In this document: one piece after another, positions 15,586 through 56,051 of the stretch
Layout: each line of letters begins with the position of its first letter
Numbering within the stretch: the stretch's first letter is position 1
NCBI GenBank assembly: GCA_023145615.1
Contig: JAGLDK010000008.1
Location: 9,837-73,836, forward strand
Length of the DNA stretch: 64,000 bases
Direction of reading: 5' to 3'
Source of the DNA: Ichthyobacteriaceae bacterium
GTDB taxonomy: Bacteria; Bacteroidota; Bacteroidia; Flavobacteriales; JADGDT01
Made by a program: the position numbers and the translations under genes
Notes under the pieces: generated by a model
What the model saw: the letters and a program-made list of their open reading frames with translations, nothing else
What the model was told of the DNA's origin: nothing
The model's database searches: none

Positions 15586-16278
15586 ATGTTGTTATCAAAA
15601 AAATTAGGAGCTGAATTTCTAGGTACTTTTTGGTTAGTGTTTGGAGGAACAGGAAGTGCAGTTTTAGCAGCTGGGTTTCCAGATGTTGGTATCGGACTTT
15701 TAGGAGTTTCGTTAGCCTTTGGACTTACAGTACTAACATGGGTTTATGCTTTTGGACACATTTCTGGAGGTCATCTTAATCCTGCGGTTTCAATTGGACT
15801 ATGGATGGGAGGACGATTTTCATCATCAGAATTAGTACCGTATATAATATCTCAAGTACTTGGTGGAATTGCAGCATCAGGAGCCTTGTATTTAATTGCA
15901 AGTGGTATTGACAGTTTTACGTTAACCGATGGTTTTGCATCAAATGGATACGGAATACACTCGCCTGGTGGATACTCGTTAATGTCGGTTTTTGTAGCCG
16001 AATTTATATTAACATTTATATTCCTGATGATAATACTTGGAGCAACCGATGATAGAGCACCAAAAGGATTTGCACCTTTAACAATAGGTTTAGCATTAAC
16101 TTTAATACACTTAATAAGTATACCTGTATCAAATACATCTGTTAACCCTGCAAGAAGTTTGGCACCAGCTTTATTTGTTGGAGATTGGGCTTTAGCACAA
16201 GTTTGGGTATTTATTTTAGCGCCAATTTTAGGAGCTATTGTAGCAGGTTTAGTGTATAAATTTTTTAAAGAAGAATAG
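15586..16278 (+). CDS. aqpZ: Aquaporin Z
   Basis: 230 aa MIP-family protein with two NPA boxes (HLNPAVS, SVNPARS) and the AqpZ-like N-terminus [16 protein letters not shown]. Confidence 0.9.
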
Positions 16279-16314
16279 TGTTTATATAAAAACATAAATA
16301 TAACTTAATAAAAT

Positions 16315-16686
16315 ATGGAAGTAGCAATTATTGCACATGATGGTAAGAAAGCTGAAATGGTTTCATTTCTGATGAAGTATTACGAATTATTAAACAAAAA
16401 AAACATACAATTAATTTCAACCGGAACAACTGGTGTACATGCTGAAAAAGCTGGATTAAAAGTAACTAAATTTCAATCGGGTCCTATTGGTGGAGATGCA
16501 GAAATAGCAGCAAGAGTTGTACAAGGACATGTTAAAATGGTTTTGTTTTTCAGAGATCCATTAGGTAAACATCCACACGAACCAGATGTTGCTATGCTTA
16601 TGAGATTATGCGATGTGCATAATGTACCGCTAGCTACTAATCCGGCAACTGCCGATTTACTTATAAATTCAATTAATGAATTATAA
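16315..16686 (+). CDS. mgsA: Methylglyoxal synthase
   Basis: 123 aa with the motifs IAHDGKK, STGTTG, GPIGGD and PHEPDV that are conserved in MgsA. Confidence 0.9.
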   Translation: MEVAIIAHDGKKAEMVSFLMKYYELLNKKNIQLISTGTTGVHAEKAGLKVTKFQSGPIGGDAEIAARVVQGHVKMVLFFRDPLGKHPHEPDVAMLMRLCDVHNVPLATNPATADLLINSINEL

Positions 16687-16825
16687 GATTTCTTGTAGTT
16701 AAAAATAAATTTTCTGATTTAGTAAATAGTTTAGTTGTAGAAGTTTTTATTAACACTGTTTTTATTATCAGTGATGGGGCTAACAATCAATAATTATTCT
16801 ATAAATTTCATCAGATAACCAAATT

Positions 16826-16861
16826 AAAAAAAAGCTAGAGAATTATCTCTAGCTTTTTTTT
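16826..16861. terminator. Bidirectional rho-independent terminator
   Basis: AGCTAGAGA ATTA TCTCTAGCT hairpin flanked by A8 and T8. It lies between convergent mgsA and the last gene of the polysaccharide locus. Confidence 0.85.
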
Positions 16862-16886
16862 AACCTTAAATTTAAGTTCTATAAAA

Positions 16887-18242
16887 TTAATCCTTTTTTA
16901 ATATTCTTTTTAATTGAGTGGTTGATATTCCTTTAGTTCTAGGTAAATAATCTACATCACAATAATCTTTCAAAAAATCAAATTCACCTTTCCAATCATC
17001 TCCCATTACAAAAACATCTATATTGTATTTTTTAACATTATCTATCTTCTGATTCCAATTTTTTTCGGGTATTACCTTATGTACATAACTTAATGACTCA
17101 AGCAATTCTTTTCTTTTTTCGTAACTATGGATACAAGTTTTTCCTTTTTCTAAATTAAATTCATCAGTTGATAAGCCAACTATTAATTTAGTACCGTAGC
17201 TTTTTGCACGTCTAAGAATTTCTAAATGACCATAATGTAATAAATCAAAAGTTCCATAAGTTAAAATAACTTTTTCTCTTTGAATAACTAGATCTTCAAA
17301 ATCAATATCAATTATACCTGTTTTATCTAAAAAAGCCTTTTTAACCACTTTTAAAAGTGGCAATCTGTTTATAACTTTATCAGGAACTATATCTAAAATC
17401 ATATCTAACGATTTTTTACCTTCTAAAACTACACTATTATCACTATCACTATAAAAACCTTTACCCATTAACAAACCTAATGTTCTGTTTCTACTTAAAT
17501 CGTTTAACGATGTTAAACCTAAGTCTCCAAAACCACAACTCAAATTTATTGTGCTTTCATCTCCTCCTAAACTTTTAAGTAATACTATAATTTCGTTAAA
17601 TGATTTTGTAAGAACTAAAAAACGAGTATTTGCCGAATTGTATTTAGCATCAGTATAACCCACTAAAATAGCATATATATTTTTCAATACACTTAGCACT
17701 TCCACCCCAGTTATATCAGTTGTTGTATCAATAAAAACATTAGTACCTTTTATTATTTCAATAATTGATTTATGATTTTCTCTTTTACTATATCCAAGTG
17801 TAAATATCGAATTTGAACCATGAATTAATTCACTTGCAAAAGTTGGACCTTTTAAGGTTATTACATCACAATTTGGTAATACTTGTTTTACATAATCAAC
17901 AATATTAATTTCTTTTGAAATTAAACCTTTAGCCAAATTAACAATCAATGTTCCATCTGAAATAAACATTTTATTGTTTTCAAAAAACTCACCTATAGAA
18001 GAAGAAGGAATTGCAATAAATATAATATCAAAATCTTTTAGTTTTGATAAATCTGAGCTAGCATATAATTTATCGCTTAAAAAGGTATTTGGAAATACTT
18101 TTGTGTTTTTATTTTTATTATTTATTTCATCTACCTTAAAATAATCTGTAGAAAACAGACATACAGCATTATTTTTATTAATTGTTAAACTATTACCTAA
18201 CGCAGTACCGAATTGTCCGGCTCCAATAATTGCTATCTTCAT
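16887..18242 (-). CDS. Fusion protein: NAD(P)H-dependent glycerol-3-phosphate dehydrogenase (GpsA-like) + glycerol-3-phosphate cytidylyltransferase (TagD-like)
   Basis: 451 aa. Residues 1-~320 are GpsA-like (MKIAIIGAGQFGTALG, ..LKGPTFASE.., ..GVEVLSVLKNIYAI.., ..GDLGLTS..SRNR). Residues ~322-451 are TagD-like (ILTYGTFDLLHYGHLEILRRAK.., ..VFVMGDDWKGEFDFL.., RTKGISTT). Confidence 0.8.
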   Translation of the reverse strand: MKIAIIGAGQFGTALGNSLTINKNNAVCLFSTDYFKVDEINNKNKNTKVFPNTFLSDKLYASSDLSKLKDFDIIFIAIPSSSIGEFFENNKMFISDGTLIVNLAKGLISKEINIVDYVKQVLPNCDVITLKGPTFASELIHGSNSIFTLGYSKRENHKSIIEIIKGTNVFIDTTTDITGVEVLSVLKNIYAILVGYTDAKYNSANTRFLVLTKSFNEIIVLLKSLGGDESTINLSCGFGDLGLTSLNDLSRNRTLGLLMGKGFYSDSDNSVVLEGKKSLDMILDIVPDKVINRLPLLKVVKKAFLDKTGIIDIDFEDLVIQREKVILTYGTFDLLHYGHLEILRRAKSYGTKLIVGLSTDEFNLEKGKTCIHSYEKRKELLESLSYVHKVIPEKNWNQKIDNVKKYNIDVFVMGDDWKGEFDFLKDYCDVDYLPRTKGISTTQLKRILKKD

Positions 18243-18473
18243 TTATTTTATTTTAGTGTGTAGTAAAAGATACAAAATATCAACAAATAACTAACTCAGC
18301 ATTTATATAAATACTGAATTAATTACTCATTAATATTTTATTTATACTTATAAAAAATATGTATTATTTAATACTAAATAACAATTAATACTTCGATTAA
18401 AGATATATAACTTTATATGTAACAAAGTAAACTCCGTTTATATTTTCTTCAAAAAAAACACACCAAAATCAAG

Positions 18474-23214: not shown

Positions 23215-25116
23215 TTAACGCAGTGTTTTAAAATCAACTATCTCAATATTAGTTTCTATAAGCCTGTTATTGGTTTCGAAAGTTAATTGCTGATATTCTG
23301 TTTTCTCTCCATATTTTTCAGAAAACCATCCTTTAGTATATTTCTTTTCCAAAGCTTTTCCATCAAAACCAAAAGCCTGAACTAACACTCTATCATCATT
23401 TAAATATTCGTTTAATATATTCCAATGCTGTACAATTGGAAGATCTCCTTTATAGCCCGAAATTTCATCAATGATTTTCCATTTCAGAGCATTCTTAAAT
23501 TTTATTACAGTTCTGGAATGAACTATATTTTTACCCAAATTAGCAAAAGCACTAATCTTTCCTTTAAACTCAAAAGTAGAATCGGTTTCGGTAACTTTTC
23601 TATCAAAAGATTTAGTCCAGAAATAATATATAAACCTACCCCCTTTTACCATCTGATTATTATTACCAATTGTAATGGTATTATGCCCAGTTGTACCATG
23701 ATAAAAATTCAAATACTCATTATTAGTATTGTACTTATAAGTACCCGGATCGAAAACTATATTTACACCATTACTCCAAATATCTAAATTCAAAGCATCG
23801 GCCTGAGCCGGTCTATCTTTATAAGTACCACACCTAATTGTGGTTAAATTTGTATCATCTCTAAAACCATAAAATCCACCAAAATCATACTCTAAAATAT
23901 TTTTTTGCTGATTTACAACTTTACAAACCACCTGCCCCGAATCTCCGTACCATCTCGAATCTTCAAACTTTTTATTATACAATTCCAGTCCAAGCACATT
24001 TGCCAAAGCTTGTAATTGAGGCTTATAATTTCTGTAATTATTATTATTAAGCGGAAAAAATAATGCACCATCATTCATGCCATAATTTGGCAACCAACCA
24101 TTGGTGTTTTCTTGCTGATTTCTTAAAAACTCAACAGTCATTTTTGCTCTATCGTAAACCACATCCGATAATTTTTGCTGATTTAGTTCCGATATTTTTA
24201 TTGCCCACGTTAAAAGCTGAACAACTACCCTATGATAATTATGAGAAAACTGTAAAAAACTACCATCCTCATAAATTTGATATTCAACTTCTTGCTCAAA
24301 CCATTTTTTACCATCATAACTCCATTTTTCGGCATCAGGAATAAATGGAAATAATATACCCGACAAAAACAAAGTCATAGTTTCGGTAATGGCATGATTA
24401 TTTCTCACAGCTATTCTCGAAAAATCAATATTATTATAAACATGATGCAATTGCCAATAAATATGATTCATTATTTTTTGAAACAACTCATCATTTAAAT
24501 TTTTCGAATTTTTAAAATACCTCAAAGCAAAAGTCCAGTTAAGTACACGCAAACTTATTTCCTGAGAACATTTATAATTAGGACCTTTGTTAATAGGGTT
24601 ATTATTAATAAAACTTTCTATTTCGGAAAACACAAATTCCGATTGATCAATACCCGAATATAAATCGTAACGTATAAAAGTATATAGCCACGAAAACCTC
24701 GACTTTTCCCAAACATATTTTATATCTCCTGCCTCTTTTGATAAATCAGCAATTTCCGACCAATGTTTATTTATATCATACTCGTAATTGGTTTCCGGAT
24801 TGGTAATCCAGTTATAATTAGTACCCAAATTAAATTTAACCGATGAAAAAAAAGTAAACACACCTTTTTTCATCTCCTCAATTTTTTCTTCCGATACAGT
24901 TTCATTACAATTAAACGACAACTTTTCTTTCGAATCGAAAAAGAACGGGATTTTCAATTCTCTCCATTCATCTAAGCTTATAAAAGTTTTAAAGTTGGTA
25001 TTAGTTGGAAACTTACTTTTCAACAATCCAAGCTTCGATTCTAAAGTATATTTGGCTCTAAAAGCCGAATACCTCAACCCCATATTACCAACAAGGTTTA
25101 TATATTTTGATATCAT
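23215..25116 (-). CDS. Heparinase II/III-like family protein
   Basis: 633 aa. The central ..RNNHAITE.. motif and the overall pattern resemble the heparinase II/III-like proteins found in O-antigen/capsule loci. Called from memory of the family, not from a search. Confidence 0.65.
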   Translation of the reverse strand: MISKYINLVGNMGLRYSAFRAKYTLESKLGLLKSKFPTNTNFKTFISLDEWRELKIPFFFDSKEKLSFNCNETVSEEKIEEMKKGVFTFFSSVKFNLGTNYNWITNPETNYEYDINKHWSEIADLSKEAGDIKYVWEKSRFSWLYTFIRYDLYSGIDQSEFVFSEIESFINNNPINKGPNYKCSQEISLRVLNWTFALRYFKNSKNLNDELFQKIMNHIYWQLHHVYNNIDFSRIAVRNNHAITETMTLFLSGILFPFIPDAEKWSYDGKKWFEQEVEYQIYEDGSFLQFSHNYHRVVVQLLTWAIKISELNQQKLSDVVYDRAKMTVEFLRNQQENTNGWLPNYGMNDGALFFPLNNNNYRNYKPQLQALANVLGLELYNKKFEDSRWYGDSGQVVCKVVNQQKNILEYDFGGFYGFRDDTNLTTIRCGTYKDRPAQADALNLDIWSNGVNIVFDPGTYKYNTNNEYLNFYHGTTGHNTITIGNNNQMVKGGRFIYYFWTKSFDRKVTETDSTFEFKGKISAFANLGKNIVHSRTVIKFKNALKWKIIDEISGYKGDLPIVQHWNILNEYLNDDRVLVQAFGFDGKALEKKYTKGWFSEKYGEKTEYQQLTFETNNRLIETNIEIVDFKTLR

Positions 25117-25486: not shown

Positions 25487-27652
25487 TCAGTTAAAATTAG
25501 CCTTTGTTAACACCGTTGCACCTAAAACTTCTATCTGTGCAACATCAATCCAAGCACCCGATTTTAAACTTTCAATAGCCGCAAAACTTGCTTTAGTAAC
25601 ATTTATCAACTCATCGTAAGGTATAAGCGATACACCTTTACCCGAATTTGCACTATCAACAATTTGCTGAAACTGATTTTTATGACCTTTATCTAAACCT
25701 GTTTTCAGTTTCGAGAACCCTTTAAATCCAAAGCCTTCGGTTTTCATAAAATTATCCATAATCAAAGTCCGTTCCTGACTATAAACCTCAAGTCGTTCTT
25801 TAGAATATGATTTTGCTCCGTTTGCAAAATAATTAATTACCCCTGTCGATCCGTTTTCTAGTTTCAACAAAATAGAGGCACTATCGGTATTTTCTTTTGG
25901 ATTTTCACCCATTGCATTCATACAAACCGACTTAATTTTACTACCCGTTAAATGAACTATTAAATCCATATAATGGCAAGCTTCTCCAATAATTCGTCCG
26001 CCACCAACAGCCATATCATGCACCCAAACATTTGCAGGTATAGCACCAGCATTCATAGTTGCAATAACATTCATTTGGCTATTTCCTAGCAACGATTTCA
26101 TTTTTATAGTATGTGGAGAAAATCGTCTATTAAACCCAATCATTAACGATGCTTCGCTATCGTTATAAGCAGCTTGAATTCTGCCTAAATCAGTAGCATT
26201 TAAGGCCAATGGTTTTTCTACAAAAACATGTTTTCCTTTTCCTAAAGCCTCAATTACCATATCGGCATGAAGGTTATGACGAGTTGTTATCATTACAACA
26301 TCAACATTTTCGTCTTCTAAAACCTTGCTATAATCTGTACTACTTTTAGCAATGCCATGTTTTTTAGCAAGTGCTGTTCCGTTAACTCCTCCTGCCGAAA
26401 CTATATGCTGAATATCGGCATTAGTTTTTTCTAAAGCAGGTAACATTGTCATTTTAGTAAAGTTTCCGGCACCAACAACTGCTATTTTTCCTTTCGATGT
26501 AGAAATTGCTTTTTCAGTTACCTCAACTGTGTAATCAGGTACATTATCTTCTTTATATTTTAGTATTGTAGCTATTGATTTCGAGTTTCCAATATCTCCA
26601 TAAATTTCTTCAAAATTCTCAATATCTATTTCTTCGGTAATTAATTCTTTAACTTTTAATCGTCCTGTAGATATTGAATTCAGTACAGTTTCGAAATTTC
26701 GTTTTTCAGTCCAACGCACAAAAGCCATTGGATAATCTAAACCTTTTTGCTCGTAATTTTCATCGTATCTACCAGGACCATACGAACATGAAACCTGAAA
26801 TGTTAATTCTTTTTCATAAAATTCAGTTCTCGAAAGATTTAATCCAATAACACCAACAAGTACAATTCTACCACGTTTACGACTCATATTTGCCGCATCC
26901 GAAATTATATCGTTACTTTTTGCTGAAGCAGTAATTATAACCGCATCGGCTCCTACTCCATTGGTTTTTCCTTCTACGTATCTAACCGGATTATCTCCTT
27001 TTGCAGGATTAAAAGCTAAAACTCCTTTTTTCTTTGCAACTTCAACTTTGGCATCATCTAAATCGTACCCAATTACAGTACAACCGTTAGCCAAAAGCAT
27101 TTCGGCAGTTAGCAAACCAATTAATCCAAGTCCAATAACTACAACAGTTTCTCCATATTGCGGATTTACAAGTCGTAAACCTTGTAAACCAATTGATCCA
27201 ATTACAGTAAATGCAGCTTCTTCGTCAGTAATATTATCGGGCACATGCGCCACTAAATTCTGAGGAACCGAAACAAACTCGGCATGCTGTCCATTTGATG
27301 CAACCCTATCGCCAACTTTAAAATCTTGCACTCCTTCTCCTACTTCAACTACCCTTCCAACATTACAATACCCCAAAGGCAAAGGTTGCTCTAACTTATT
27401 AAAAACAGTTTCAATAGTTGGCATTAAACCTTCAGATTTAATTTTATCCAAAACCATTTTTACCTTATCAGGCTGCTGACGTGCTTTTTCAATTAAAGAC
27501 GCTTTACCAAATTCTACCAACATACGCTCAGTTCCTAACGAAACTAACGAACGAGTTGTTTTAATTAAAACCTGACCCTTTTTAACAGTAGGACTTGGCA
27601 ACTCTGCCAACTCAGTTTTTCCTGTTTTAAACGATTGTAATATTTGCTTCAT
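25487..27652 (-). CDS. Bi-domain oxidoreductase (MDR/zinc-ADH-like N-terminal half + Gfo/Idh/MocA C-terminal half)
   Basis: 721 aa. The N-terminal half is a GroES-like plus Rossmann domain (VVVIGLGLIGLL). The C-terminal half is Gfo/Idh/MocA-like (KIAVVGAGNFTK.., ..HVFVEKPLALN). Confidence 0.8.
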   Translation of the reverse strand: MKQILQSFKTGKTELAELPSPTVKKGQVLIKTTRSLVSLGTERMLVEFGKASLIEKARQQPDKVKMVLDKIKSEGLMPTIETVFNKLEQPLPLGYCNVGRVVEVGEGVQDFKVGDRVASNGQHAEFVSVPQNLVAHVPDNITDEEAAFTVIGSIGLQGLRLVNPQYGETVVVIGLGLIGLLTAEMLLANGCTVIGYDLDDAKVEVAKKKGVLAFNPAKGDNPVRYVEGKTNGVGADAVIITASAKSNDIISDAANMSRKRGRIVLVGVIGLNLSRTEFYEKELTFQVSCSYGPGRYDENYEQKGLDYPMAFVRWTEKRNFETVLNSISTGRLKVKELITEEIDIENFEEIYGDIGNSKSIATILKYKEDNVPDYTVEVTEKAISTSKGKIAVVGAGNFTKMTMLPALEKTNADIQHIVSAGGVNGTALAKKHGIAKSSTDYSKVLEDENVDVVMITTRHNLHADMVIEALGKGKHVFVEKPLALNATDLGRIQAAYNDSEASLMIGFNRRFSPHTIKMKSLLGNSQMNVIATMNAGAIPANVWVHDMAVGGGRIIGEACHYMDLIVHLTGSKIKSVCMNAMGENPKENTDSASILLKLENGSTGVINYFANGAKSYSKERLEVYSQERTLIMDNFMKTEGFGFKGFSKLKTGLDKGHKNQFQQIVDSANSGKGVSLIPYDELINVTKASFAAIESLKSGAWIDVAQIEVLGATVLTKANFN

Positions 27653-29811: not shown

Positions 29812-31068
29812 TTAGTTTTTCACTTGTTTTATTTTATTATTAACTCTTTTTTTAAAATAATCACTAGGGTAAATTAAGTATGATAATAAATACAAAATAA
29901 CCAATAAGAGTATATATTTATTGCCTCCTTCATTTCCTAAAATAAAGTAGAAAAATCCACTTGCCATAAATTGAGCATAAAATGTATATATTATTATTCT
30001 CCTAAAAAAGTGTAATCGTGGTGCAATTCCTACGTAGTAATCAATTGTTAAATAACTAAATAAAGAAATAAACAACATTAATATTAAACCTCCCGATTTA
30101 TAATAACTTGTTAAAAAAGTTCCGAATTGCCATTCGTAAGGGTTAACTCTTCTACTTAAAGAGGTATTCACTTCATATGAAGTAAACAATTTTTTGAAAA
30201 ATGGAAAACCAGAATCTCCATAATTATATTTCGTCCACCTATTTATTGTTTCATTAAAAATAAATGGTTGCATACCAGCATACCCTACAACTCCTACTTC
30301 AAAAGCAGAAGATCCAGATTTTTTTTGATCAAATCTATCAACAGTTGCAATAGTCAAAAACCCTACCGAAATTACTGAGAACAGAATAAACATACGTTGT
30401 ATGTATTTAACTATCTTCTCTGATAAAAGTTTATAAAACAAAAAATTCACTACTAAAAACGCAATTCCAACAAGTATGAATCCCGTTCTACCCGAAAATG
30501 CTAATACATTAACAATGTATGATATGGCTCCTAAAGCCAAACCCAACTTTATATAAATTGATTTTTTTTGAATTATTGCTACATAAATAAACACTAAAAA
30601 CAAATAATAAAAACGAGCTATAGTGGTTGATATTGTAGTAAAAATACTTTTCGGCAATACTGTTACACCATCCTGAATCAGTCCCTCCCTTATCTCTTTA
30701 GTTCCAGTTACAAGTGATTTAAATGCATGAGGAGACAAATAAACAAAAGCAAAAACACCTGCAATTGAAAAAACAATTAACACAACATCCATTACCCCAT
30801 CTCGAGGTATAATCGATTCAGAAGTTATTGATCTTATTTTTAAAGCAGGAAGTAGGTGAAGTAATATTAATACTGAGTACAAAACAAAAACTAACCATGA
30901 GTCTTGAGTAAAATCATGACTTGGTATTATATGAGATCCTATAAAAAAAGAAAAGATGGTACCAACAAAATATATACCTATAATTACCATTGCCACTTTG
31001 TTTTTTAAATACCTGTAATTATAATAAAACAACAATGATATAAATATGAAAGGAATTATTGCATGCAT
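29812..31068 (-). CDS. O-antigen/repeat-unit polymerase (Wzy-like) polytopic membrane protein
   Basis: 418 aa with about 10 or more hydrophobic segments, located between GT genes and next to Wzx. Called from topology and context only. Confidence 0.5.
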   Translation of the reverse strand: MHAIIPFIFISLLFYYNYRYLKNKVAMVIIGIYFVGTIFSFFIGSHIIPSHDFTQDSWLVFVLYSVLILLHLLPALKIRSITSESIIPRDGVMDVVLIVFSIAGVFAFVYLSPHAFKSLVTGTKEIREGLIQDGVTVLPKSIFTTISTTIARFYYLFLVFIYVAIIQKKSIYIKLGLALGAISYIVNVLAFSGRTGFILVGIAFLVVNFLFYKLLSEKIVKYIQRMFILFSVISVGFLTIATVDRFDQKKSGSSAFEVGVVGYAGMQPFIFNETINRWTKYNYGDSGFPFFKKLFTSYEVNTSLSRRVNPYEWQFGTFLTSYYKSGGLILMLFISLFSYLTIDYYVGIAPRLHFFRRIIIYTFYAQFMASGFFYFILGNEGGNKYILLLVILYLLSYLIYPSDYFKKRVNNKIKQVKN

Positions 31069-33638: not shown

Positions 33639-34865
33639 TTATAGCTCATTAATTTTACTAAGCACGCGCTGAGTATTATTGAAATCATTATACTTAAAAA
33701 ACAATTTATAAATATCTTTATATCTCTCATCTACCGATTCGGAAGAAGGATAATTACTGTTTTGTAAAGTCTTAATTAAGTCGTTAAACGAATAACAAAT
33801 TTCTCCTGGAAATACATCCTTTAAATCATACACAAATCCATGTTGACTATTTACATAATGATCGTAATCATAAGCAAAAGAAATAACTGTTTTATTCAAA
33901 TATAAAGCATCAATATATGTGCTTGAATAATCCGAAATTAAAATATCCGACTCCCTAGTAAGTATATTCATATTAGAAATCATACTTGTTGATAAATCTA
34001 TAATATACTCATTGTCAATTATTTTTTTGAAAATATCAATTGGCGGATTAAAAGGATGATACCTAATTCCTAGTAAATAATTATTATCTTTTAAAAACTT
34101 CTTTAATATTGATAATTCTTCATTTGTAAAGTTATAATAATAGCCACCCACAGTACTATCTTTGTACGTTGGAGCATACATAATTAATTTTTTATCACCT
34201 TTTATAACTCTTAATAAACTAAGTTCTTTTTTTAGTTCATCTGGAAGATTCTTATCTTCTAACTTTAAAAAATCATTTCTTGGCAATCCGGTTTCCCAAA
34301 AATTCTCATCAGGAGTATTAAAAAACACTTTCTTTAAAATTTCTTTATTATCGGTTGATGAAGCTATAATAGAATGATGCTTCATTTCTTTCTCTAACTC
34401 CTTATTCATAAAACCAACTTCAGGATTAGAAAGATCTTTAATTATTATTCCATGCCAAAGGTTTACTATATTTCTATATTCGGGATGAGTAAAACGGAGT
34501 TTAATACTTTTAAATTCATAAGATATTGAATGTTGAATAATTATTTTCTTAGATTTTAAAAGATACCAATACGCAACCAACGACGTCATTTTTACCTGCT
34601 TAACACTTTTAGAGTTTCCTAAAGAAAGTTTTTTATTCCTGAATAATACAATTTTTTGTATATCATGGTTATTCTTAACACCCTCGAATAAGGCTAACGA
34701 ATTATCACTTAAATCTCCATCTCCCAAAAAGTAAACAGGAAAAATCCAGTAATCTTTTCTTTTTTCAAAAAAGCCATCTAACAGATTAAATACTACATTT
34801 AATAATAATCGTACACCCCAAACAAAACGATTAAAAATAGCTGATATAATTTTTGTTATTTTCAT
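33639..34865 (-). CDS. CDP-glycerol glycerophosphotransferase family protein (TagB/TagF-like)
   Basis: 408 aa with TagF-family C-terminal motifs (..YAPTYKD.., ..LISDYSSTYIDALYLNKTVISFAYDYDHY..). Confidence 0.8.
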   Translation of the reverse strand: MKITKIISAIFNRFVWGVRLLLNVVFNLLDGFFEKRKDYWIFPVYFLGDGDLSDNSLALFEGVKNNHDIQKIVLFRNKKLSLGNSKSVKQVKMTSLVAYWYLLKSKKIIIQHSISYEFKSIKLRFTHPEYRNIVNLWHGIIIKDLSNPEVGFMNKELEKEMKHHSIIASSTDNKEILKKVFFNTPDENFWETGLPRNDFLKLEDKNLPDELKKELSLLRVIKGDKKLIMYAPTYKDSTVGGYYYNFTNEELSILKKFLKDNNYLLGIRYHPFNPPIDIFKKIIDNEYIIDLSTSMISNMNILTRESDILISDYSSTYIDALYLNKTVISFAYDYDHYVNSQHGFVYDLKDVFPGEICYSFNDLIKTLQNSNYPSSESVDERYKDIYKLFFKYNDFNNTQRVLSKINEL

Positions 34866-34894
34866 AAAACAATGTCAAAATTTTTATTAATAGA

Positions 34895-35030
34895 TTATTT
34901 ATTCTCCTGCTTTAATTTTTCACCTTCCATATTATATACTTCTATTTTTAATTCTGAAAAGATAATTTCATACCTATCCCTTAAGTGTACTAAAATGTAT
35001 TTTTACAGGTATCGCATGCCACTAAAAGTC
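34895..35030 (-). pseudogene. Decayed 3'-terminal fragment of a second TagD/ECT-like cytidylyltransferase gene
   Basis: Minus-strand translation of 34972-34895 gives YEIIFSELKIEVYNMEGEKLKQENK*. The intact gene ends ..YDIIFSELRREVQNMEEWKLKQS* (35184-35261). 16 of 22 residues are identical, and the nucleotide similarity is visible by eye. An in-frame stop lies upstream (35003-35005) and there is no start. Confidence 0.55.
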
Positions 35031-35183
35031 AATCAAAAAGTATCAAGATCAGTTTAAAAATATAGAGCACGCAAATTTATTCGCTATGCTCTTAATTTAT
35101 CATTGATACAACCAAAAAAATAAAAACTATATTTTGGTTGCTATAAAACTTATTGTATTATGTGGATTATGCCTTACTTATAG

Positions 35184-35672
35184 TTACGATTGTTTTAATT
35201 TCCATTCTTCCATATTTTGCACTTCTCTGCGTAATTCTGAAAAAATAATATCGTACGAATTCTTTATAATATCACGTTTAGTACTAGTTGTACTTACAGT
35301 TCCGGTATATGGCAGATATACAACTTCCTTACCTTCTTGATTTTGCATCCAATCTAAACCCTCTAAGTATTTATCTTTCCAATCATCGCCAATTGTTACA
35401 ACATCAATCCCTAGTTCTTCAAGTTGATTAATATCTGTAAGTTTTTCTTGTTTTACAGCTTTATAAACTCCTTTCATTGATTGTATAATTCTTAACCTTT
35501 GCTCGAAAGGAATAACCGGAGGCATACCTTTATAATCAGCTATTAACTCGTCAGTACTTACTCCAACAATAAGTTTATCACCATATTCTGCCGATTTTTC
35601 AATAATATTAACATGCCCTATATGAAATAAGTCCCAAGTTCCTGATGTGTAAACAATTCTATCTTTTTTCAT
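35184..35672 (-). CDS. Cytidylyltransferase family protein (TagD / ethanolamine-phosphate cytidylyltransferase-like)
   Basis: 162 aa with HxGH-type motif SGTWDLFHIGH, plus GVSTDE and IGDDWKDKY. The substrate is not assignable from sequence. Confidence 0.8.
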   Translation of the reverse strand: MKKDRIVYTSGTWDLFHIGHVNIIEKSAEYGDKLIVGVSTDELIADYKGMPPVIPFEQRLRIIQSMKGVYKAVKQEKLTDINQLEELGIDVVTIGDDWKDKYLEGLDWMQNQEGKEVVYLPYTGTVSTTSTKRDIIKNSYDIIFSELRREVQNMEEWKLKQS

Positions 35673-36735
35673 TACGTAAATTATTTTGAATTTCTACTAT
35701 TTTATTAACTACTATATCTAATTCTCTTTTATTTTGAAGTCCAATATGCGACACTCTTAAAAGCTCACTACTTCCACTTGGCATTACATATATATTTTCT
35801 TTATTAAGCTGGTTACATACATTTTTACTGTTTTCAACATAAAATCCAGTAACACACGACGAAGGACTTTCAGCACTTAAAGTCCAATTATTATTTTTAC
35901 ACAATTGTCTGAAATACAATGCGTTTTCCTTTACTTTATTTAACGTTTTTTCTGCTCCTTCTTTCTTCAATTTCAACAACCTTGCATGTAGCTGATAAAA
36001 CAAAACTGTAGCCGGACTAAATGGTGTTTGACCTCTTTGCAAATTGCTTAGATTTTCTTCCATGTCTAAATAATAGTTATTACTACTAAATCCTTGCTTT
36101 AATGCTTTTTCGGCAATAGCTACAAACGATAATCCTGGAGGAATATTTAATCCTTTTTGACTACTAACAACAGCCATATCAATATCCCAGTTTTTCATAC
36201 TGAAATCATCAGTCATAAAAGAACTAATTGCATCAACAACCAATCGTACATTGTTATTTTTACAAGTGGTTGATATTTTATCTAAATCATATAATTGCCC
36301 CGATGATGTTTCGTGATGCTGACACAACAACACATCGTAATTGCCTTTATCTATAATATCATTTAATTTTGTATAATTAATATCTTTACCAAATACAACT
36401 TTAAACTCGTCGGCATTTATATTATGATATTTGCATAAATCTCTCCATCTGTTTCCAAAAGTCCCTCCATTAATAACCAAAACTTTATTGAAATTTGAAA
36501 CATAATTAACAACCACCGATTCCATTGCCGCAGTACCTGCCGATGTATAGGTAATAACTTTACCATCTTTTACATCTAACAATTCCTTTAATATTTCCTC
36601 GTTTTCGTTAACCATTTTCGAAAATTTACTTGTGCGCATATATGGAATTTGTTTAGATCCTAATGCCAAAATATCATCTTCAATTAAACCTGGAAATGCA
36701 AAGGTTAGCATTTCATTATCTGAATTTTCAAACAT
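35659..36735 (-). CDS. Class-V (AGXT/serine-pyruvate-type) PLP aminotransferase
   Basis: 358 aa with the PLP-lysine context VVSSQKGLNIPPGLSFVAI that is typical of class-V aminotransferases. It overlaps the next gene by 14 nt. Confidence 0.8.
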   Translation of the reverse strand: MFENSDNEMLTFAFPGLIEDDILALGSKQIPYMRTSKFSKMVNENEEILKELLDVKDGKVITYTSAGTAAMESVVVNYVSNFNKVLVINGGTFGNRWRDLCKYHNINADEFKVVFGKDINYTKLNDIIDKGNYDVLLCQHHETSSGQLYDLDKISTTCKNNNVRLVVDAISSFMTDDFSMKNWDIDMAVVSSQKGLNIPPGLSFVAIAEKALKQGFSSNNYYLDMEENLSNLQRGQTPFSPATVLFYQLHARLLKLKKEGAEKTLNKVKENALYFRQLCKNNNWTLSAESPSSCVTGFYVENSKNVCNQLNKENIYVMPSGSSELLRVSHIGLQNKRELDIVVNKIVEIQNNLRNEKR

Positions 36736-37186
36736 AATCTTCTCCTCTCATTGTTAATACTGGCGACATTCCCTCTTTAAATCCAAATTTTGCATAAAAT
36801 GGTTCGCTACCAGGAATGGCAGTTAAAAACATTTTCATAAAACCTCCTTCTATACTTTTTTTGGTAGTTAAATCAAGTAATCCCTTTCCAACTCCTAATT
36901 TTCTATAATCAGGATTAACCATAACATCAAGTATGTAATACATGTAAACATTATCGGTTAAAAGTCTTGCGTAACCAATTAACTCATTGTTTTTTAATGG
37001 ATTTCGTGCAGTAATTGCAACAGTATTTTCAAGCGAAATCTTTTCTTTTTCAACAGTTCGTAATGAATAATGAAAAACATTTTCGGGTGGAAATTTATCT
37101 GATGTAGATTTTTTCATTTTTTCCATCAAATTAAAAAGTTCGTCAGTATTTACCTCATCATTAAATTTATAGGTTATTTTATTCAT
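36728..37186 (-). CDS. GNAT family N-acetyltransferase
   Basis: 152 aa with acetyl-CoA motif A (YRKLGVGKGLL). Confidence 0.75.
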   Translation of the reverse strand: MNKITYKFNDEVNTDELFNLMEKMKKSTSDKFPPENVFHYSLRTVEKEKISLENTVAITARNPLKNNELIGYARLLTDNVYMYYILDVMVNPDYRKLGVGKGLLDLTTKKSIEGGFMKMFLTAIPGSEPFYAKFGFKEGMSPVLTMRGEDYV

Positions 37187-37188
37187 AA

Positions 37189-38457
37189 TTAATTTATCAT
37201 ATCAGGTGCAAAAACAGGAATATCATGAACTTCAGATACATCAAATCTTTCAACATGACTATCATCTATAAATATTGATTTATTTCCTTTTATATATTTC
37301 GATTTTTTATCTTTTCTATCTAAATGAATAACCTCATCAAACAAAGTACTTAACCTATATTTTTTCAACGATTCGTTAATATCAAAAGCATGTCGGGTAA
37401 TTAAAGTAACTTTTTTACCTTCGTTTATATACTGATAAAGTTTAGCTACCAAAGAAGTATTAACCTTGCCTTCAATTATTAAACAGTCATCAAAATCAAC
37501 ATAAACCTTATCGAAATCGTAATCCATATTTACTACAACTCCTAATGCCCTATCAATTTCAATACTAGCTTTATTCTCAACAATACTAACATCAAAATCA
37601 AAAGAATCGAAAATACTCAGTAGTGCAAAATTCACTCCTTTATATCTGTATAACAACGATGATCCTCCCATACGAGACGCAACCTCTAACAACGATAATT
37701 TATTATTTATATCTCTTTTAACTTGATAAAACCAAGCTCCACGAAACTCCATTTTAGAATTTATTGTGCGTGCAATTTCCTCAAATTCAAATCGTTCGGT
37801 TACATCTAACGAAATTGTATTAACCGATATTCCTGTTCGTGTACGCCTACGAGGACGTGGACCAGAAAACATCAGTTCTCCTTTTTTATTAGTAAAACAA
37901 TCAACTGTATATTCCTCTCCTGGTAAGTAATCCGATATAATACAATCACCCCATTCCTCTATATGAGATATTCCCTCATTTAAAGTTTTTATAACCTTTG
38001 CACCTCTCGATCCGTACCCAACATTGGGTTTTATAAATACCGGAAAATTTTCAACATCAATAATATTATCATACACTCTTGGCACATTCATTACCGAATT
38101 TAACAGAGTATATGTTAGTTTTTTTGAAGAACATATTCTACTAGTTTCAACCGACGATGCAATAACTTTGCAATTAAATTCTTGCTCTAATGGTTTTAAA
38201 AAAGAAATTGCAATATCCATAGCCGGATATATTGCTTCAATTTTATTATCTGAAATTATTTTTTTAAAATGCTCTACAAAATCAACGTCATTAATATTGG
38301 GCACATTTCCAATATAATTTTCGTAAACAAACTTACCGTGATCGTTAACACTACTAGCGCCAAATAACTCAACATGACGACTATGCTTTAACGAACGATG
38401 TATTTCTAAACCAACTTCCGATCCGCAAGGAAAAACTAAAACTTTAATTTTATTCAT
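37189..38457 (-). CDS. ATP-grasp ligase fused to a C-terminal HAD-like phosphatase module
   Basis: 422 aa. The first ~310 aa follow an ATP-grasp pattern (..FPVFIKPNVGYGSRGAKVI.., ..EYTVDCF.., ..LLEVASRMGGS). The last ~105 aa carry HAD-like motif I KVYVDFDDCLI and motif IV-like SIFIDDS. Confidence 0.7.
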   Translation of the reverse strand: MNKIKVLVFPCGSEVGLEIHRSLKHSRHVELFGASSVNDHGKFVYENYIGNVPNINDVDFVEHFKKIISDNKIEAIYPAMDIAISFLKPLEQEFNCKVIASSVETSRICSSKKLTYTLLNSVMNVPRVYDNIIDVENFPVFIKPNVGYGSRGAKVIKTLNEGISHIEEWGDCIISDYLPGEEYTVDCFTNKKGELMFSGPRPRRRTRTGISVNTISLDVTERFEFEEIARTINSKMEFRGAWFYQVKRDINNKLSLLEVASRMGGSSLLYRYKGVNFALLSIFDSFDFDVSIVENKASIEIDRALGVVVNMDYDFDKVYVDFDDCLIIEGKVNTSLVAKLYQYINEGKKVTLITRHAFDINESLKKYRLSTLFDEVIHLDRKDKKSKYIKGNKSIFIDDSHVERFDVSEVHDIPVFAPDMIN

Positions 38458-39565
38458 TGGTAATTAATTTAACTATGTAACTAATTTCTTCTTCTGATAG
38501 GTTTGGATATATTGGCAAACAAATTACCTTATCAGCTATTTTAACTGCATTTTGTAAATTATTTCTATTAGCCGATGGCAATCCTTTATAAGTTGGAAAA
38601 TCGCTTATAAGCGGATAAAAATATCTTCTTCCATACACATTATGATCCTTTAATTTTTCATAAAGCTCATCTCTACTAAGTGTGTAATCGCTATTAACAT
38701 AAATCGGGAAATATGCATAATTATGCTTAACTCCTTCAATATCTTTTAAACAACTAATACCTTCAACACCCTTAAATTTTTCTTTGTATTTATATGCAAT
38801 ATCCTTACGTTGTTGAATTTGCTTATCAATTGTGTTAAGCTGTAATAATCCGTATGCCGATTGTAGTTCATTCATTTTAGCATTTATACCTGGTGCTACC
38901 ACAGTGGTTTCATCTGCAAATCCAAAATTCTTTAAAAAGTCAATTCGTTTTTTTGTTCCCTCATCATGACATATAATTGCCCCACCTTCTATTGTATTAA
39001 ATGTTTTGGTGGCATGGAAACTTAATATTGATAAATCTCCATAATTTAGCACACTCTGTCCGTTAATTTCAACTCCAAAAGCATGTGCCGCATCATAAAT
39101 AATTTTTAAGCCATAGGTGTCGGCAATACGTTCTAGTTTTTCAACCTCAACCGGATTTCCATAAACATGTACCGGAACAATTGCAGTAGTTTTTGGAGTA
39201 ATTAAACTCTCTATTTTATCTATATCTAAATTTCCGTAAACGGGATCTATATCGCAAAACACCGGAGTTATTCCATTCCAATGCAAAGCATGAGTTGTTG
39301 CAACAAAAGTATATGGAGTTGTAATTACCTCTCCCGAAATTCTAAGTGTTTGCAAAGCAGTAATTAAAGCAAGAGTTCCGTTAGAAAATAACGACACATA
39401 TTTTACCCCAAGATGTTTTGCTAATTTATCCTCAAATTCTTGATGATATTTACCATTATTAGTCAACCATTTATTTTCCCAAATATCCTCTAGTTTCTCT
39501 ACAAATTCTCCTAAATCTGGCATTGTTGGTTGAGTTACCAGTATCGGTTTTTCTCTTTTCTCCAT
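38450..39565 (-). CDS. DegT/DnrJ/EryC1/StrS family NDP-sugar aminotransferase
   Basis: 371 aa with typical family features (..SNGTLALITALQ.., ..SFHATKTFNTIEGG..). Confidence 0.9.
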   Translation of the reverse strand: MEKREKPILVTQPTMPDLGEFVEKLEDIWENKWLTNNGKYHQEFEDKLAKHLGVKYVSLFSNGTLALITALQTLRISGEVITTPYTFVATTHALHWNGITPVFCDIDPVYGNLDIDKIESLITPKTTAIVPVHVYGNPVEVEKLERIADTYGLKIIYDAAHAFGVEINGQSVLNYGDLSILSFHATKTFNTIEGGAIICHDEGTKKRIDFLKNFGFADETTVVAPGINAKMNELQSAYGLLQLNTIDKQIQQRKDIAYKYKEKFKGVEGISCLKDIEGVKHNYAYFPIYVNSDYTLSRDELYEKLKDHNVYGRRYFYPLISDFPTYKGLPSANRNNLQNAVKIADKVICLPIYPNLSEEEISYIVKLITNE

Positions 39566-39603: not shown

Positions 39604-40986
39604 TTATTTTACTTTCTTAAATACATTATACTTATTATTGATACATTCAATAAAATCATAATTATCTTTAAGTTTTTTAGTTACTAAAGAATCTTCTACA
39701 GCATAAAAAATTAAATAACTATCTTTTTCTATTTGATCTAATACCGTATTGTAAGCTCTTGTTCGGGGAAAAGTGTAACCTAATTTTTTATAATTTGCCG
39801 ATCTATAATTGCCATAATAATATTGGGCAGGACTAATTTTTAAATAAACTTTACTGTTTTTTGGCACAACATCTACTAATACCTTACTTACTGCAATATC
39901 TCTATTATACTTATGTATTGTGTTGTTATATTTACTATACCAACCGTAAGCTCCAAAAACAATAACCGTATAAATTGTTAAGTATTTTAAAACCTTATTT
40001 ATACTGAATTTATATACTATAATACTGTAATTTAATTTATTTAATGCAATGGCTAGTATAAATATCGACCATGGTATTATTGCATAGAAGTAATACAAAA
40101 TAACTGAAAAATAAATACTTAGCATGGTACTTAAAAAAGCCAAAATAAAAAATACTATGTATTTATCAATCTTAATAAATTTTAGTAAATAGAAGCTAAA
40201 AGGAACAAAAATAAATACCGTTGGAATTAGCACAAAACTTGCTAAGTACATAAGAACACTTTGTCCTCCTGTAATTTTTATAGCACCTTCTACTCCCATA
40301 ATTCCAACCAAACGCTTAAGATAATCCCAAAAATCTATTTGATTAAAATGTATTACATACATTAATATTAATACAGTAAAGAAACCTGATTTAAACAGTG
40401 AAAAATTTTTAATAATTCTTTTGTCATCATCCATTACAACCCAATAAAAAATTGGAATTGCAAAAGCTAATGCATACTGCTTTGTATAAAAAGACAGGAA
40501 TAGAAACACGCCCGATAAAAAATATTTTTTCTTGAATAAAAACAATGTTGTTAATAGCATAAACAACAACATTAAAGGTTCTAAATAAATACTTATACCA
40601 CCTAAAAACAATGAGTAAAGCATGAAAAGTATAATCGTAAATGTTTTTATTTGTTGTTTTATTTTCAATAACGTAAGTACCTTATAAAACACAGCAACAC
40701 TTATAAGCTGTATTGCAAATACTACTAAAAAAAAATATTGAGTTTCAATTTCGGATGTTAATAAATAAGGTATTCCATAAAAATAAATTGCCAACGGATT
40801 ATATTCTACCGCCATTTTGTAATAAGGAATTCCATCTGCAAAAACATCTCTTGCAATAGAAATGTAATACGATCCATCTACCCCAACATTTGGATAGTTT
40901 AAAGAAAGCAACACCATTAAAATTACAAATATCAACCACACTAATTGTGACACTTTATTTGTTTTACTATCAAAAAAAGTTTTCAT
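39604..40986 (-). CDS. GT-C-like polytopic membrane glycosyltransferase candidate (ArnT/PMT_2-like)
   Basis: 460 aa with many hydrophobic segments, a first-loop motif VDGSYYISIARDV reminiscent of the DExxY loop of GT-C enzymes, and a ~100-aa soluble C-terminus. It lies directly downstream of an ArnC/GtrB-type GT2. Confidence 0.5.
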   Translation of the reverse strand: MKTFFDSKTNKVSQLVWLIFVILMVLLSLNYPNVGVDGSYYISIARDVFADGIPYYKMAVEYNPLAIYFYGIPYLLTSEIETQYFFLVVFAIQLISVAVFYKVLTLLKIKQQIKTFTIILFMLYSLFLGGISIYLEPLMLLFMLLTTLFLFKKKYFLSGVFLFLSFYTKQYALAFAIPIFYWVVMDDDKRIIKNFSLFKSGFFTVLILMYVIHFNQIDFWDYLKRLVGIMGVEGAIKITGGQSVLMYLASFVLIPTVFIFVPFSFYLLKFIKIDKYIVFFILAFLSTMLSIYFSVILYYFYAIIPWSIFILAIALNKLNYSIIVYKFSINKVLKYLTIYTVIVFGAYGWYSKYNNTIHKYNRDIAVSKVLVDVVPKNSKVYLKISPAQYYYGNYRSANYKKLGYTFPRTRAYNTVLDQIEKDSYLIFYAVEDSLVTKKLKDNYDFIECINNKYNVFKKVK

Positions 40987-42006: not shown

Positions 42007-43173
42007 TTAATTTCTATAAAACTCAATCACGGCATTTATTACTCTATCAATTTCTGCACTTTTTAAATCGTAATACATTGGCAATCTTAATAATCTACTT
42101 GTATAAAGTTCCGATTGTGGTAAATCAACCTTGCTATTACTTTTTAAGTAAAACGGACTTTCATGAAGACATAAATAATGAAATACACTGTGTATATTTT
42201 TCTGTTTTAAAAAATTAATCAACTCAGTTCTTTCATCAACCGACTTGGTAATTAAGTAAAACATATGTCCGTTGCTTGTGGCATAATCTGGAATAAATGG
42301 CAGTTTAATTTTGTTTTCAATTAACTTAAGTCCATTATAATATTTATTCCAATTCCAAATACGTTTGGCTTGTATTTTGTCAATGTTTTCGAGTTGTGCA
42401 TACAAAAAACCTGCCACTGTTTCCGAAGGTAAAAATGATGATCCTGTATCAACCCAAGTATATTTATCAATTTCTCCTCTAAAAAAAGAAGCTCTATTTG
42501 TTCCTTTTTCCCAAATAATTTCGGCACGTTCAATTAGTTCGTCATCATTTACAACAAGTAAACCTCCTTCTCCCGAAATAACATTTTTTGTTTCATGAAA
42601 AGAGAAAGTTCCTAAATGCCCAATGCCTCCAAGTGGTTGTCCTTTATAAAAGCTTTCAACTGCCTGAGCAGAATCTTCAACAACCTTAATATTATATTTT
42701 TTAGATAAAGCCATAACCTTATCCATATCAACTGCAACTCCTGCGTAATGAACCACAACAATAGCTTTAGTTTTACTAGTTATTAATTCTTCTATTTTAT
42801 TAACATCAATATTTGGTGTTTCCACCTCCGAATCGGCAAATACAATTTTAGCACCTTGTCTGAAAAAAGCTAATGCCGTTGACACAAAAGTGTAAGAAGG
42901 AATTATAACCTCATCTTCAGGTTTAATGTCTAACAACATTGCACACATTTCTAAAGCAGTGGTGCACGATGTGGTTAATAATGTTTTTTTGAAACCATAT
43001 CTTTCTTCGAAAAAATGCTGGCATTGTTTTGTATAAATTCCATTACCCGATAATTGTCCGGAACTAACTGCTTTTTGAATATAATTAGTTTCGTTTCCGG
43101 TTAAATACGGTTTATTAAATGGTATTTCTTTAAATGTTTCTTTATTCTTTAAAGTGTCCGATTTAGTATTCAT
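42007..43173 (-). CDS. WecE/ArnB-like NDP-4-keto-sugar aminotransferase (DegT family)
   Basis: The ORF track gives 42007..43311. The family-typical N-terminus (..IPFNKPYLTGNETNYIQKAV..SGNGIYTKQC..) begins right after the internal ATG at 43173, so I take that as the start. The upstream 46 codons look non-coding. Confidence 0.85.
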   Translation of the reverse strand: MNTKSDTLKNKETFKEIPFNKPYLTGNETNYIQKAVSSGQLSGNGIYTKQCQHFFEERYGFKKTLLTTSCTTALEMCAMLLDIKPEDEVIIPSYTFVSTALAFFRQGAKIVFADSEVETPNIDVNKIEELITSKTKAIVVVHYAGVAVDMDKVMALSKKYNIKVVEDSAQAVESFYKGQPLGGIGHLGTFSFHETKNVISGEGGLLVVNDDELIERAEIIWEKGTNRASFFRGEIDKYTWVDTGSSFLPSETVAGFLYAQLENIDKIQAKRIWNWNKYYNGLKLIENKIKLPFIPDYATSNGHMFYLITKSVDERTELINFLKQKNIHSVFHYLCLHESPFYLKSNSKVDLPQSELYTSRLLRLPMYYDLKSAEIDRVINAVIEFYRN

Positions 43174-43366
43174 GATTACTCTATCGTAGGTAATATTTTT
43201 ATATTTTAAACTCGAATTATTATTTTTACAATTCGATAAAATTGATTTATTAACAACTACTTTCATAAACAAGTGTTTTATACTATATCGAAATATATTG
43301 AACCAATACACTCAATAAAGAAATGATAATTTAGTTTGGCTATAGATATTTAAGATATTTAAAACC

Positions 43367-53503: not shown

Positions 53504-53509
53504 TTTATC

Positions 53510-54742: not shown

Positions 54743-54863
54743 TAATTTTAAACTGCATCTTAGTTTATTTCAATACTAAAATTAGAGTTATAAAAGAGTA
54801 GTTTACATTTTATATTACAACTATACTTTTATAATTCTTCAGTTCAACTAAAACCCAAAAATC

Positions 54864-56045: not shown

Positions 56046-56051
56046 CGTATT

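Follow-up and report, generated by a model that had tools for sequence, protein, structure and literature searches.

The 64,000-nucleotide stretch of Ichthyobacteriaceae bacterium DNA analysed here (contig JAGLDK010000008.1 of assembly GCA_023145615.1; hereafter the window) carries a Wzx/Wzy-type polysaccharide biosynthesis locus that ends in a gene of 451 codons (16887-18242, minus strand), in which a domain resembling the glycerol-3-phosphate dehydrogenase GpsA is followed by one resembling the cytidylyltransferase TagD. The locus thus raises the question of whether one polypeptide could take dihydroxyacetone phosphate (DHAP) all the way to cytidine diphosphate (CDP)-glycerol and, if so, for which polymer. 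Here we found that the gene is a genuine GpsA-TagD fusion of an architecture common in Bacteroidota, and we argue from its sequence that it very probably encodes a bifunctional CDP-glycerol synthase, in which the N-terminal domain would reduce DHAP to sn-glycerol-3-phosphate (G3P) using NAD(P)H and the C-terminal domain would convert G3P and cytidine triphosphate (CTP) to CDP-glycerol and pyrophosphate.

One reading frame, two enzyme domains

The listing of open reading frames (ORFs) and our re-translation both gave a single frame on the minus strand, running uninterrupted from an ATG to one stop codon at 16887-16889, as the original prediction had claimed without giving the strand, and domain profiles matched along it. 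The gene has a G+C content of 26%, at which stop codons are frequent, so that an open frame of 1356 nucleotides is improbable by chance. All motifs quoted in the prediction were recovered in their places from the re-translated protein, namely GAGQFGTALG (residues 7-16), LKGPTFASE (130-138), GVEVLSVLKNIYAI (179-192), GDLGLTS (239-245) and SRNR (250-253) in the N-terminal half and TYGTFDLLHYGH (328-339), GDDWKGEFDFL (414-424) and RTKGISTT (435-442) in the C-terminal half, and the predicted junction at about 17280 agrees with the codon for residue 322 at 17277-17279. Pfam assigned residues 2-154 to NAD_Gly3P_dh_N (E 3e-28), 176-303 to NAD_Gly3P_dh_C (E 1e-24), 236-299 to GPD_NAD_C_bact and 327-446 to CTP_transf_like (E 2e-23). 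AlphaFold2, given an alignment of 27 fusion sequences, produced a model that was confident across both domains (mean predicted local distance difference test score, pLDDT, 87.2; predicted template modelling score, pTM, 0.78). When this model was compared with the PDB using Foldseek, the top 26 matches were all glycerol-3-phosphate dehydrogenases (GPDHs) with TagD structures coming next, and none of the PDB matches was a solved chain spanning both halves. Alignment and model leave only a few residues for the linker, since the GpsA C-terminal helices end near residue 319 and the first strand of TagD begins at residue 325, and the linker pattern RLPL...F...F.L is kept across the 27 aligned proteins.

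A single frame of this kind could in principle result from an assembly or sequencing error merging a gpsA-like gene with a neighbouring tagD gene. The exact sequence was found again in two other assemblies, an ENA metagenome scaffold and a Logan assembly contig, with an identical 451-aa product and the same neighbours, although both may share one sample. At least 120 independent protein clusters also show the same unbroken architecture with its conserved linker, and isolate genomes carry the fusion as well, examples being Aestuariibaculum marinum IP7 and Polaribacter sp. HL-MS24, the latter with a complete chromosome. An artefact thus has a vanishingly small probability, and we conclude that the gene is a genuine fusion of GpsA-like and TagD coding sequence.

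The C-terminal half (residues 324-451; 16890-17273, minus strand) scored 183.5 bits (E 1e-54) against TIGR01518, for which the equivalog cut-off is 165.4 bits, with residues 326-446 covering profile positions 1-123 of 125. It aligned end to end with TagD of Bacillus subtilis (PDB 1coz, E 7e-51) and with the Staphylococcus aureus structure 2b7l (E 1e-48), and Foldseek template modelling scores (TM-scores, target-normalised throughout) reached 0.89 to 1coz_A and 0.96-0.97 to 2b7l, at 63% identity. The motifs HxGH (H336-Y-G-H339), GDDW (414-417) and RTKGISTT (from R435 to residue 442) are intact, K366 and K368 match the substrate lysines K44 and K46 of B. subtilis TagD in the alignment to 1coz, and all of these positions are invariant in the 27 aligned fusions. 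The complete TagD-type domain proposed for residues ~322 to 451 was thereby confirmed, and by profile, fold and motifs this half is unambiguously classified as TagD, a predicted glycerol-3-phosphate cytidylyltransferase.

For the N-terminal half (residues 1-320; 17283-18242, minus strand), the Pfam scores far exceeded the gathering thresholds (PF01210, 99 vs. 23.1 bits; PF07479, 87.9 vs. 25; PF20618, 60.1 vs. 27.6). Coxiella GpsA (PDB 3k96) matched this half with an E-value of 8e-28, and TM-scores to bacterial GpsA structures were 0.83-0.85 (0.83 to 3k96, 0.85 to 1z82); the 26 GPDH matches as a whole fell between 0.75 and 0.85, except that two Dunaliella chains, which are longer and have two domains, scored about 0.5. 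The catalytic and phosphate-binding residues of this fold, which we take to be K120, K204, N205, D260, T264, R269 and N270 in human GPD1 numbering, have their likely counterparts in K105, K187, N188, D240, T244, R251 and N252, all of which align with 3k96, and the Rossmann motif GAGQFG is found at residues 7-12. Six of these seven residues are invariant among the 27 fusions, K105 being conserved in at least 90%. Judged by this alignment, the N-terminal half is a complete GPDH-fold domain with all the predicted catalytic and phosphate-binding residues.

The full GpsA motif set claimed for residues 1 to ~320 is therefore present, whereas the implied identity with a standard GpsA is not: the half scored below all NCBIfam GpsA cut-offs (178.4 vs. 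257 bits for NF000942, the best, and 155.5 vs. 202 for NF000940), which places it in a divergent, Bacteroidota-centred clade of paralogues. Because the curated GpsA thresholds are not reached, its substrate has to be deduced from the conserved residues and from the partner to which it is fused. Both domains keep every residue required for their steps, as expected if one polypeptide were to convert DHAP to CDP-glycerol.

Distribution and origins of the fusion

A search of 5.8 billion proteins gave at least 120 clusters of fusion relatives, all of about 450 aa with the full two-domain architecture and 52-63% identical to the window protein, including proteins of Aestuariibaculum marinum, Mariniflexile rhizosphaerae and Polaribacter. 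Where these relatives are named, NCBI calls them only "glycerol-3-phosphate cytidylyltransferase", so that the reductase half goes unreported. We also scanned genomes, with one genome per species and counts that are lower bounds. With the single fusion protein as query the scan returned only one unrelated TagD locus, and an earlier alignment-based scan was dominated by standalone TagD genes, its patterns having come from the TagD half; an alignment of the GpsA C-terminal half plus linker as query gave at least 80 loci, which by reading frame comprised at least 26 fused loci and at least 54 standalone genes of ~330 aa. The fused loci belong to Flavobacteriales of many genera, Chitinophagaceae (Ginsengibacter, Taibaiella) and Draconibacterium. 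The fused architecture, which the original prediction had held to be worth documenting, is thus not rare; it is widespread in Bacteroidota and has a separate origin in Clostridia.

Two side observations concern further fusions. The Flavobacteriaceae metagenome-assembled genome CAZBXQ01 holds two different GpsA-TagD fusion loci in one bin (L099 and L132), of which L132 has a 496-codon open frame abutted by a TagF-like match. A representative search also returned three other GpsA fusions, P0189 (637 aa), P0241 (893 aa) and P0247 (451 aa); two of the three have an N-terminal PlsY-like membrane domain and a long acidic linker followed by GpsA, and P0247 combines a GpsA N-terminal half with a C-terminal half that is not TagD.

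In an exhaustive profile search with residues 1-320, the nearest relatives of the reductase half were not ordinary GpsA enzymes but standalone proteins of 316-340 aa with 35-52% identity. These relatives fall short of the curated GpsA thresholds as well (195-210 vs. 257 bits), while the canonical GpsA P0244 scored 455-474 bits. Their genes lie most often directly after a Wzx-like flippase gene, and some adjoin other nucleotidyltransferase genes (CTP_transf_3, NTP_transferase) or HAD genes. No TagD gene was found near them, and only one of the 54 standalone loci listed in the genome scan had a TagF-like gene within 5 kb. A standalone GpsA-like clade of ~330-aa proteins, 41-52% identical to the fusion N-domain (standalone loci within L097-L176, e.g., L105, L107, L139 and L171; proteins P0123-P0148), was observed in polysaccharide loci of Bacteroidales, Flavobacteriales and Spirochaetota, and the Bacteroidales genes show DUF4783-NadC-BrkB synteny. 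We considered whether these ~330-aa proteins could be the housekeeping GpsA of Bacteroidota, and found this unsupported, given their scores below the GpsA thresholds and their place in polysaccharide loci, although Bacteroidales may differ.

The Clostridial fusions (L003-L009) are of another kind. They are ~485-510 aa long and have a canonical GpsA half (NF000942, 397 vs. 257 bits) that shares only ~25% identity with the Bacteroidota N-domains and 46-48% with canonical standalone GpsAs. In a neighbour-joining tree (Kimura distances with saturated distances clipped, 200 bootstraps, not maximum likelihood), all fusions formed one clade in 0 of 200 bootstraps, and the split between the Bacteroidota fusions with their standalone kin and the Clostridial fusions with theirs was recovered in 200 of 200. 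Since both N-domain identity and this split separate the two groups, the fusion appears to have arisen at least twice, and on these sequence comparisons we regard the Clostridial fusion as an independent event; the distance tree resolves the split between Bacteroidota and Clostridia, not the number of events within Bacteroidota.

The divergence of the reductase half suggests a different explanation, in which the N-terminal domain, instead of reducing DHAP to G3P, acts on another small ketone or serves as a regulatory or ligand-binding module, and the TagD half makes some other CDP-alcohol or is supplied with G3P from outside. Consistent with this, the domain and its nearest standalone relatives all lie under the curated GpsA cut-offs (178-210 vs. 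257 bits), and the relatives occupy polysaccharide loci without a TagD or TagF-like gene nearby, some beside unrelated nucleotidyltransferases or a HAD-type enzyme. An example of action on another ketone is offered by the pneumococcal CDP-2-glycerol pathway, in which the reductase Gtp1 works on unphosphorylated dihydroxyacetone, alongside a separate glycerol-2-phosphotransferase and the cytidylyltransferase Gtp2. However, a Gtp3-like phosphotransferase gene flanks the fusion in none of the loci examined, the C-terminal domain reaches the equivalog threshold for an sn-glycerol-3-phosphate cytidylyltransferase and keeps the G3P-binding lysines, and the GPDH residues for holding the DHAP phosphate and for hydride and proton transfer are invariant across the fusions. 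The Clostridial joining of a canonical GpsA to TagD follows the same logic independently. We therefore consider a different role of the N-terminal domain quite improbable and retain the reading of the protein as a CDP-glycerol synthase.

Gene neighbourhoods and the polysaccharide locus of the window

If CDP-glycerol is the product, genes for its use would be expected nearby, and this is what other genomes show. Among the loci listed in the genome scan, 20 of the 26 fused ones have a TagF-like gene no more than 5 kb away, compared to the single case among the 54 unfused relatives, and in 15 of these 20 it is within ~110 bp. In Mariniflexile and Aestuariibaculum the fusion is part of a Wzx/Wzy locus, and a Glyphos_transf (TagF-like) gene begins on or directly next to its stop codon; in metagenomic relatives TagF-like genes are found at most two genes from the fusion (two in L090, one in L092). 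A gene of LicD, another CDP-alcohol phosphotransferase family, adjoins the fusion in Polaribacter and in Ruminococcus flavefaciens; in the latter (strain YAD2003, L009, 9995-11509) the fusion follows LicD in an rml/epimerase cluster. In L082-L085, L090-L092 and L009 the fusion was located within a Wzx/Wzy or cell-wall polysaccharide locus or at its margin, the exception to the polysaccharide setting being the Clostridial L007, in which the fusion comes after genes for an ABC transporter and an APH-type kinase-like protein. In Bacillus sp. 491mf (L040, 10001-16668), tagD and a gpsA-like gene stand apart at a distance of 4 kb in the company of three TagF-like genes, the gpsA-like protein being 26% identical to the N-domain of the window, and this arrangement is the classic unfused counterpart of the fusion, which lends it Rosetta-stone support. 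The original prediction of a dedicated CDP-glycerol supply is thus well supported by context in other genomes, where TagF-like and LicD neighbours and polysaccharide loci mark the fusion as a supply module of such loci.

By this interpretation, CDP-glycerol would be the donor for glycerol-phosphate transfer onto a surface polysaccharide built by the Wzx/Wzy route, and the fusion would act as a locus-borne module drawing glycerol phosphate from glycolysis, presumably independently of the housekeeping GpsA pool that serves phospholipids. Joining the two steps would secure their 1:1 co-expression and their co-inheritance. Physical channelling of G3P between the domains, which the original prediction had also proposed, is possible but not required, as co-expression and co-transfer of the two steps would be sufficient reason for the fusion. 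A more far-reaching proposal is that the enzyme does channel, that its GpsA2-type domain is neither product-inhibited nor regulated as housekeeping GpsA is, so that decoration is uncoupled from phospholipid synthesis, and that the standalone GpsA2 clade consists of unrecognised polyol-phosphate reductases dedicated to polysaccharides; we regard this as speculative and, taken as a whole, doubtful. The activities of both domains are predictions, and so are the acceptor and the transferase discussed below for the window.

In the window, Pfam scans delimited the Wzx/Wzy-type locus to 18474-46073 on the minus strand. As the original prediction had placed it, the fusion gene stands at the 3' end, where it closes a 29-kb series of 22 same-strand ORFs, each 110 aa or longer, most of which have polysaccharide-biosynthesis domains. 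According to Pfam, these include a UDP-sugar dehydrogenase, ATP-grasp ligases, DegT aminotransferases, glycosyltransferases, a Wzx flippase, a UDP-GlcNAc 2-epimerase, an initiating Bac_transf and a PglD-like acetyltransferase; two ORFs (29812-31068 and 39604-40986) are multi-spanning, with 8-9 hydrophobic segments, and had no Pfam match. Between the fusion gene and the convergent mgsA gene a terminator scan detected a palindromic hairpin with an 18-pair stem flanked by an A-run and a T-run (16824-16863), one of two such sites in the scan compared to 0.4 expected in shuffles, and this hairpin is likely a bidirectional terminator that closes the polysaccharide locus.

Three features of the window, together with the sub-threshold scores of the reductase half described above, weigh against our interpretation. 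An AT-rich gap of 231 bp (18243-18473, minus strand) parts the fusion gene from the PglD-like acetyltransferase gene and thereby from the rest of the locus. No LicD gene and no second TagF-like gene were found in the 64 kb, and the one CDP-alcohol phosphotransferase that could be recognised is part of a different conserved cassette. The gap may hold a promoter of its own; a sigma-70 scan gave 13 sites compared to 19.1 expected, hence no enrichment, and the exact Bacteroidetes-type motif TAnnTTTG is absent from it.

The cassette in question (33639-37186, minus strand; assigned by Pfam and NCBIfam) consists of genes for a GNAT protein (36728-37186), a class-V aminotransferase (35659-36735), a small TagD paralogue of 162 aa (35184-35672; TIGR01518, 80.5 vs. 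165.4 bits) and the TagF-like phosphotransferase (33639-34865), all on the minus strand. The same gene order was found in contig L095 (8539-11759), and L096 (7910-10544), which carries a protein named by NCBI from Bacteroides congonensis, has the trio of TagF-like, aminotransferase and cytidylyltransferase genes; in both contigs, the 9 kb read on either side contained no fusion. The small cytidylyltransferase of the window is 73% identical to its counterpart in L095 and 63% to that in L096. The TagF-like protein is 54% identical to its counterpart in the fusion-less L095 compared to only 26-31% to the TagF-like proteins encoded beside fusions elsewhere, which makes it doubtful as the user of the CDP-glycerol. 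Contrary to the original prediction, this gene ~15 kb away is thus probably not the user enzyme of the fusion but a conserved partner of the aminotransferase and small cytidylyltransferase.

On these grounds, one could propose that the enzyme works as we suggest but that its gene is transcribed separately and its CDP-glycerol is meant for an acceptor other than the polymer of this locus, such as a protein O-glycan, lipopolysaccharide or lipooligosaccharide, or the product of another locus. The 231-bp gap, the assignment of the sole TagF-like gene to the cassette, the lack of LicD or any other recognisable glycerophosphotransferase in the 64 kb and the G+C content of the fusion gene, 26% compared to 29.5% for the locus, would all be in line with this. 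On the other hand, all 22 genes of the locus share the orientation of the fusion gene, which is followed by the terminator that would close the locus, the other fusion loci read lie in or at polysaccharide loci with the exception of L007, and a nearby TagF-like gene is the rule among the fused loci listed. Moreover, TagF-like enzymes can be promiscuous, and that of the window could still accept CDP-glycerol. We therefore judge a separate acceptor unlikely and favour supply of CDP-glycerol to the polysaccharide encoded by the locus.

The cassette itself resembles a complete pathway for making a CDP-activated amino-alcohol or amino-acid phosphate and transferring it, for example from DHAP by way of serinol phosphate to CDP-serinol; to our knowledge, no CDP-activated donor of this kind has been described. 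Its aminotransferase scored below the cut-offs for PhnW/AepZ, BhcA and SerC and has more than 1400 homologues, mostly at ~50% identity and named "alanine--glyoxylate aminotransferase family", the organisms named being Bacteroides and other Bacteroidota, and a metagenome scan with it as query gave no match. The window thus contains two independent CDP-alcohol supply modules and one recognisable phosphotransferase.

Beyond the terminator, an aquaporin Z equivalog gene and the methylglyoxal synthase gene mgsA (15586-16686, plus strand) run convergent to the fusion gene and share the terminator with it. The MIP channel was considered as a glycerol facilitator linked to the fusion and rejected, as the opposite-strand gene encodes an aquaporin Z equivalog. 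A methylglyoxal synthase gene was absent from the gene tables of the fusion loci read in other organisms, and the adjacency of these two genes to the fusion was repeated only in the assemblies with the identical fusion protein (L093, L094). Although methylglyoxal synthase also consumes DHAP, the adjacency of the fusion and mgsA is probably coincidental.

Several other genes of the window were recorded. Within the biosynthetic locus, a 721-aa protein (25487-27652, minus strand) fuses a zinc-type alcohol dehydrogenase to a GFO/IDH/MocA oxidoreductase and adjoins a 633-aa heparinase II/III-like protein (23215-25116, minus strand). The two ATP-grasp ligase genes (37189-38457 and 43367-44527, minus strand) are paired with DegT genes (38450-39565 and 42007-43311), which suggests a polymer with amino sugars or uronic acids bearing amide-linked substituents. 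Apart from the main locus lie a second glycosyltransferase cluster of four genes (GT2, GT2, GT4/GT1 and GT2; 52613-57245, plus strand) and a gene of the UDP-sugar epimerase/dehydratase type (60590-61612).

Relation to known systems

In the synthesis of wall teichoic acid by B. subtilis and S. aureus and in that of the Campylobacter jejuni HS:1 capsule, for which Gct has been described (PMC11924219), GpsA (EC 1.1.1.94) and the cytidylyltransferase TagD/TarD/Gct (EC 2.7.7.39) are separate proteins. The fusion would carry out the same reactions in the same order and with the same product, CDP-glycerol for TagF-like or LicD transferases. Unlike those systems, it is one polypeptide with almost no linker, its reductase is a divergent paralogue carried by the locus, and its setting is a Gram-negative Wzx/Wzy polysaccharide locus.

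The closest functional analogue that has been characterised, a single protein combining reduction and activation of a polyol phosphate, is the Haemophilus influenzae CDP-ribitol synthase Bcs1, which reduces ribulose-5-phosphate and activates ribitol-5-phosphate, and the Bcs1/Acs1 gene lies in the capsule locus alongside a TagF-like transferase (PMC10299916). According to its title as cited, Zolli et al. (2001) found Bcs1 to act "without substrate channeling", which weakens the channelled supply of the original prediction. Bcs1/Acs1, like the TarI-TarJ pair of S. aureus, thus shares with the fusion the logic of a polyol-phosphate reductase coupled to a cytidylyltransferase, whereas the substrates differ. 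The domains of Bcs1/Acs1 are an IspD-type cytidylyltransferase and a short-chain or medium-chain reductase. A Pfam scan of the fusion protein gave no match to IspD, NTP_transf_3 or adh_short; since the domain families differ and the window protein matches neither, the likeness would be one of convergence and not of homology.

A parallel in architecture is offered by the Clostridial fusions, which in Ruminococcus flavefaciens YAD2003, for example, have the same domain order, a TagD equivalog of 198 bits, an adjacent LicD gene and a cell-wall polysaccharide context, but differ from the Bacteroidota fusions in their canonical GpsA N-domain and their position in the tree. PlsY-GpsA proteins and the phosphatase-GPDH of Dunaliella salina (PDB 6iuy) resemble the fusion in combining a GPDH with the following, G3P-consuming enzyme; their partners are an acyltransferase and a phosphatase, respectively, the latter being presumably the N-terminal domain of 6iuy, and their products are lysophosphatidate and glycerol instead of a nucleotide-activated donor.

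Both activities and the pathway are textbook knowledge, and the GpsA-TagD architecture is abundant in databases, where it is named only for its TagD half; a description of the fusion was not found in the open-access literature. We therefore present it as a modest, under-annotated finding that will not surprise the specialist and overturns no existing knowledge. Its use lies partly in annotation, as TagD-only names hide the reductase half of its relatives, and partly in prediction, as the gene is a clean marker of polysaccharides that contain glycerol phosphate in marine Flavobacteriia and rumen Clostridia. A single protein that forms CDP-glycerol from DHAP, NAD(P)H and CTP would also suit enzyme cascades for teichoic-acid-like or capsule polymers. 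Set beside the convergent CDP-ribitol synthase, the two apparently independent GpsA-TagD fusions point to recurrent selection for packaging the making of a polyol phosphate with its activation in polysaccharide loci.

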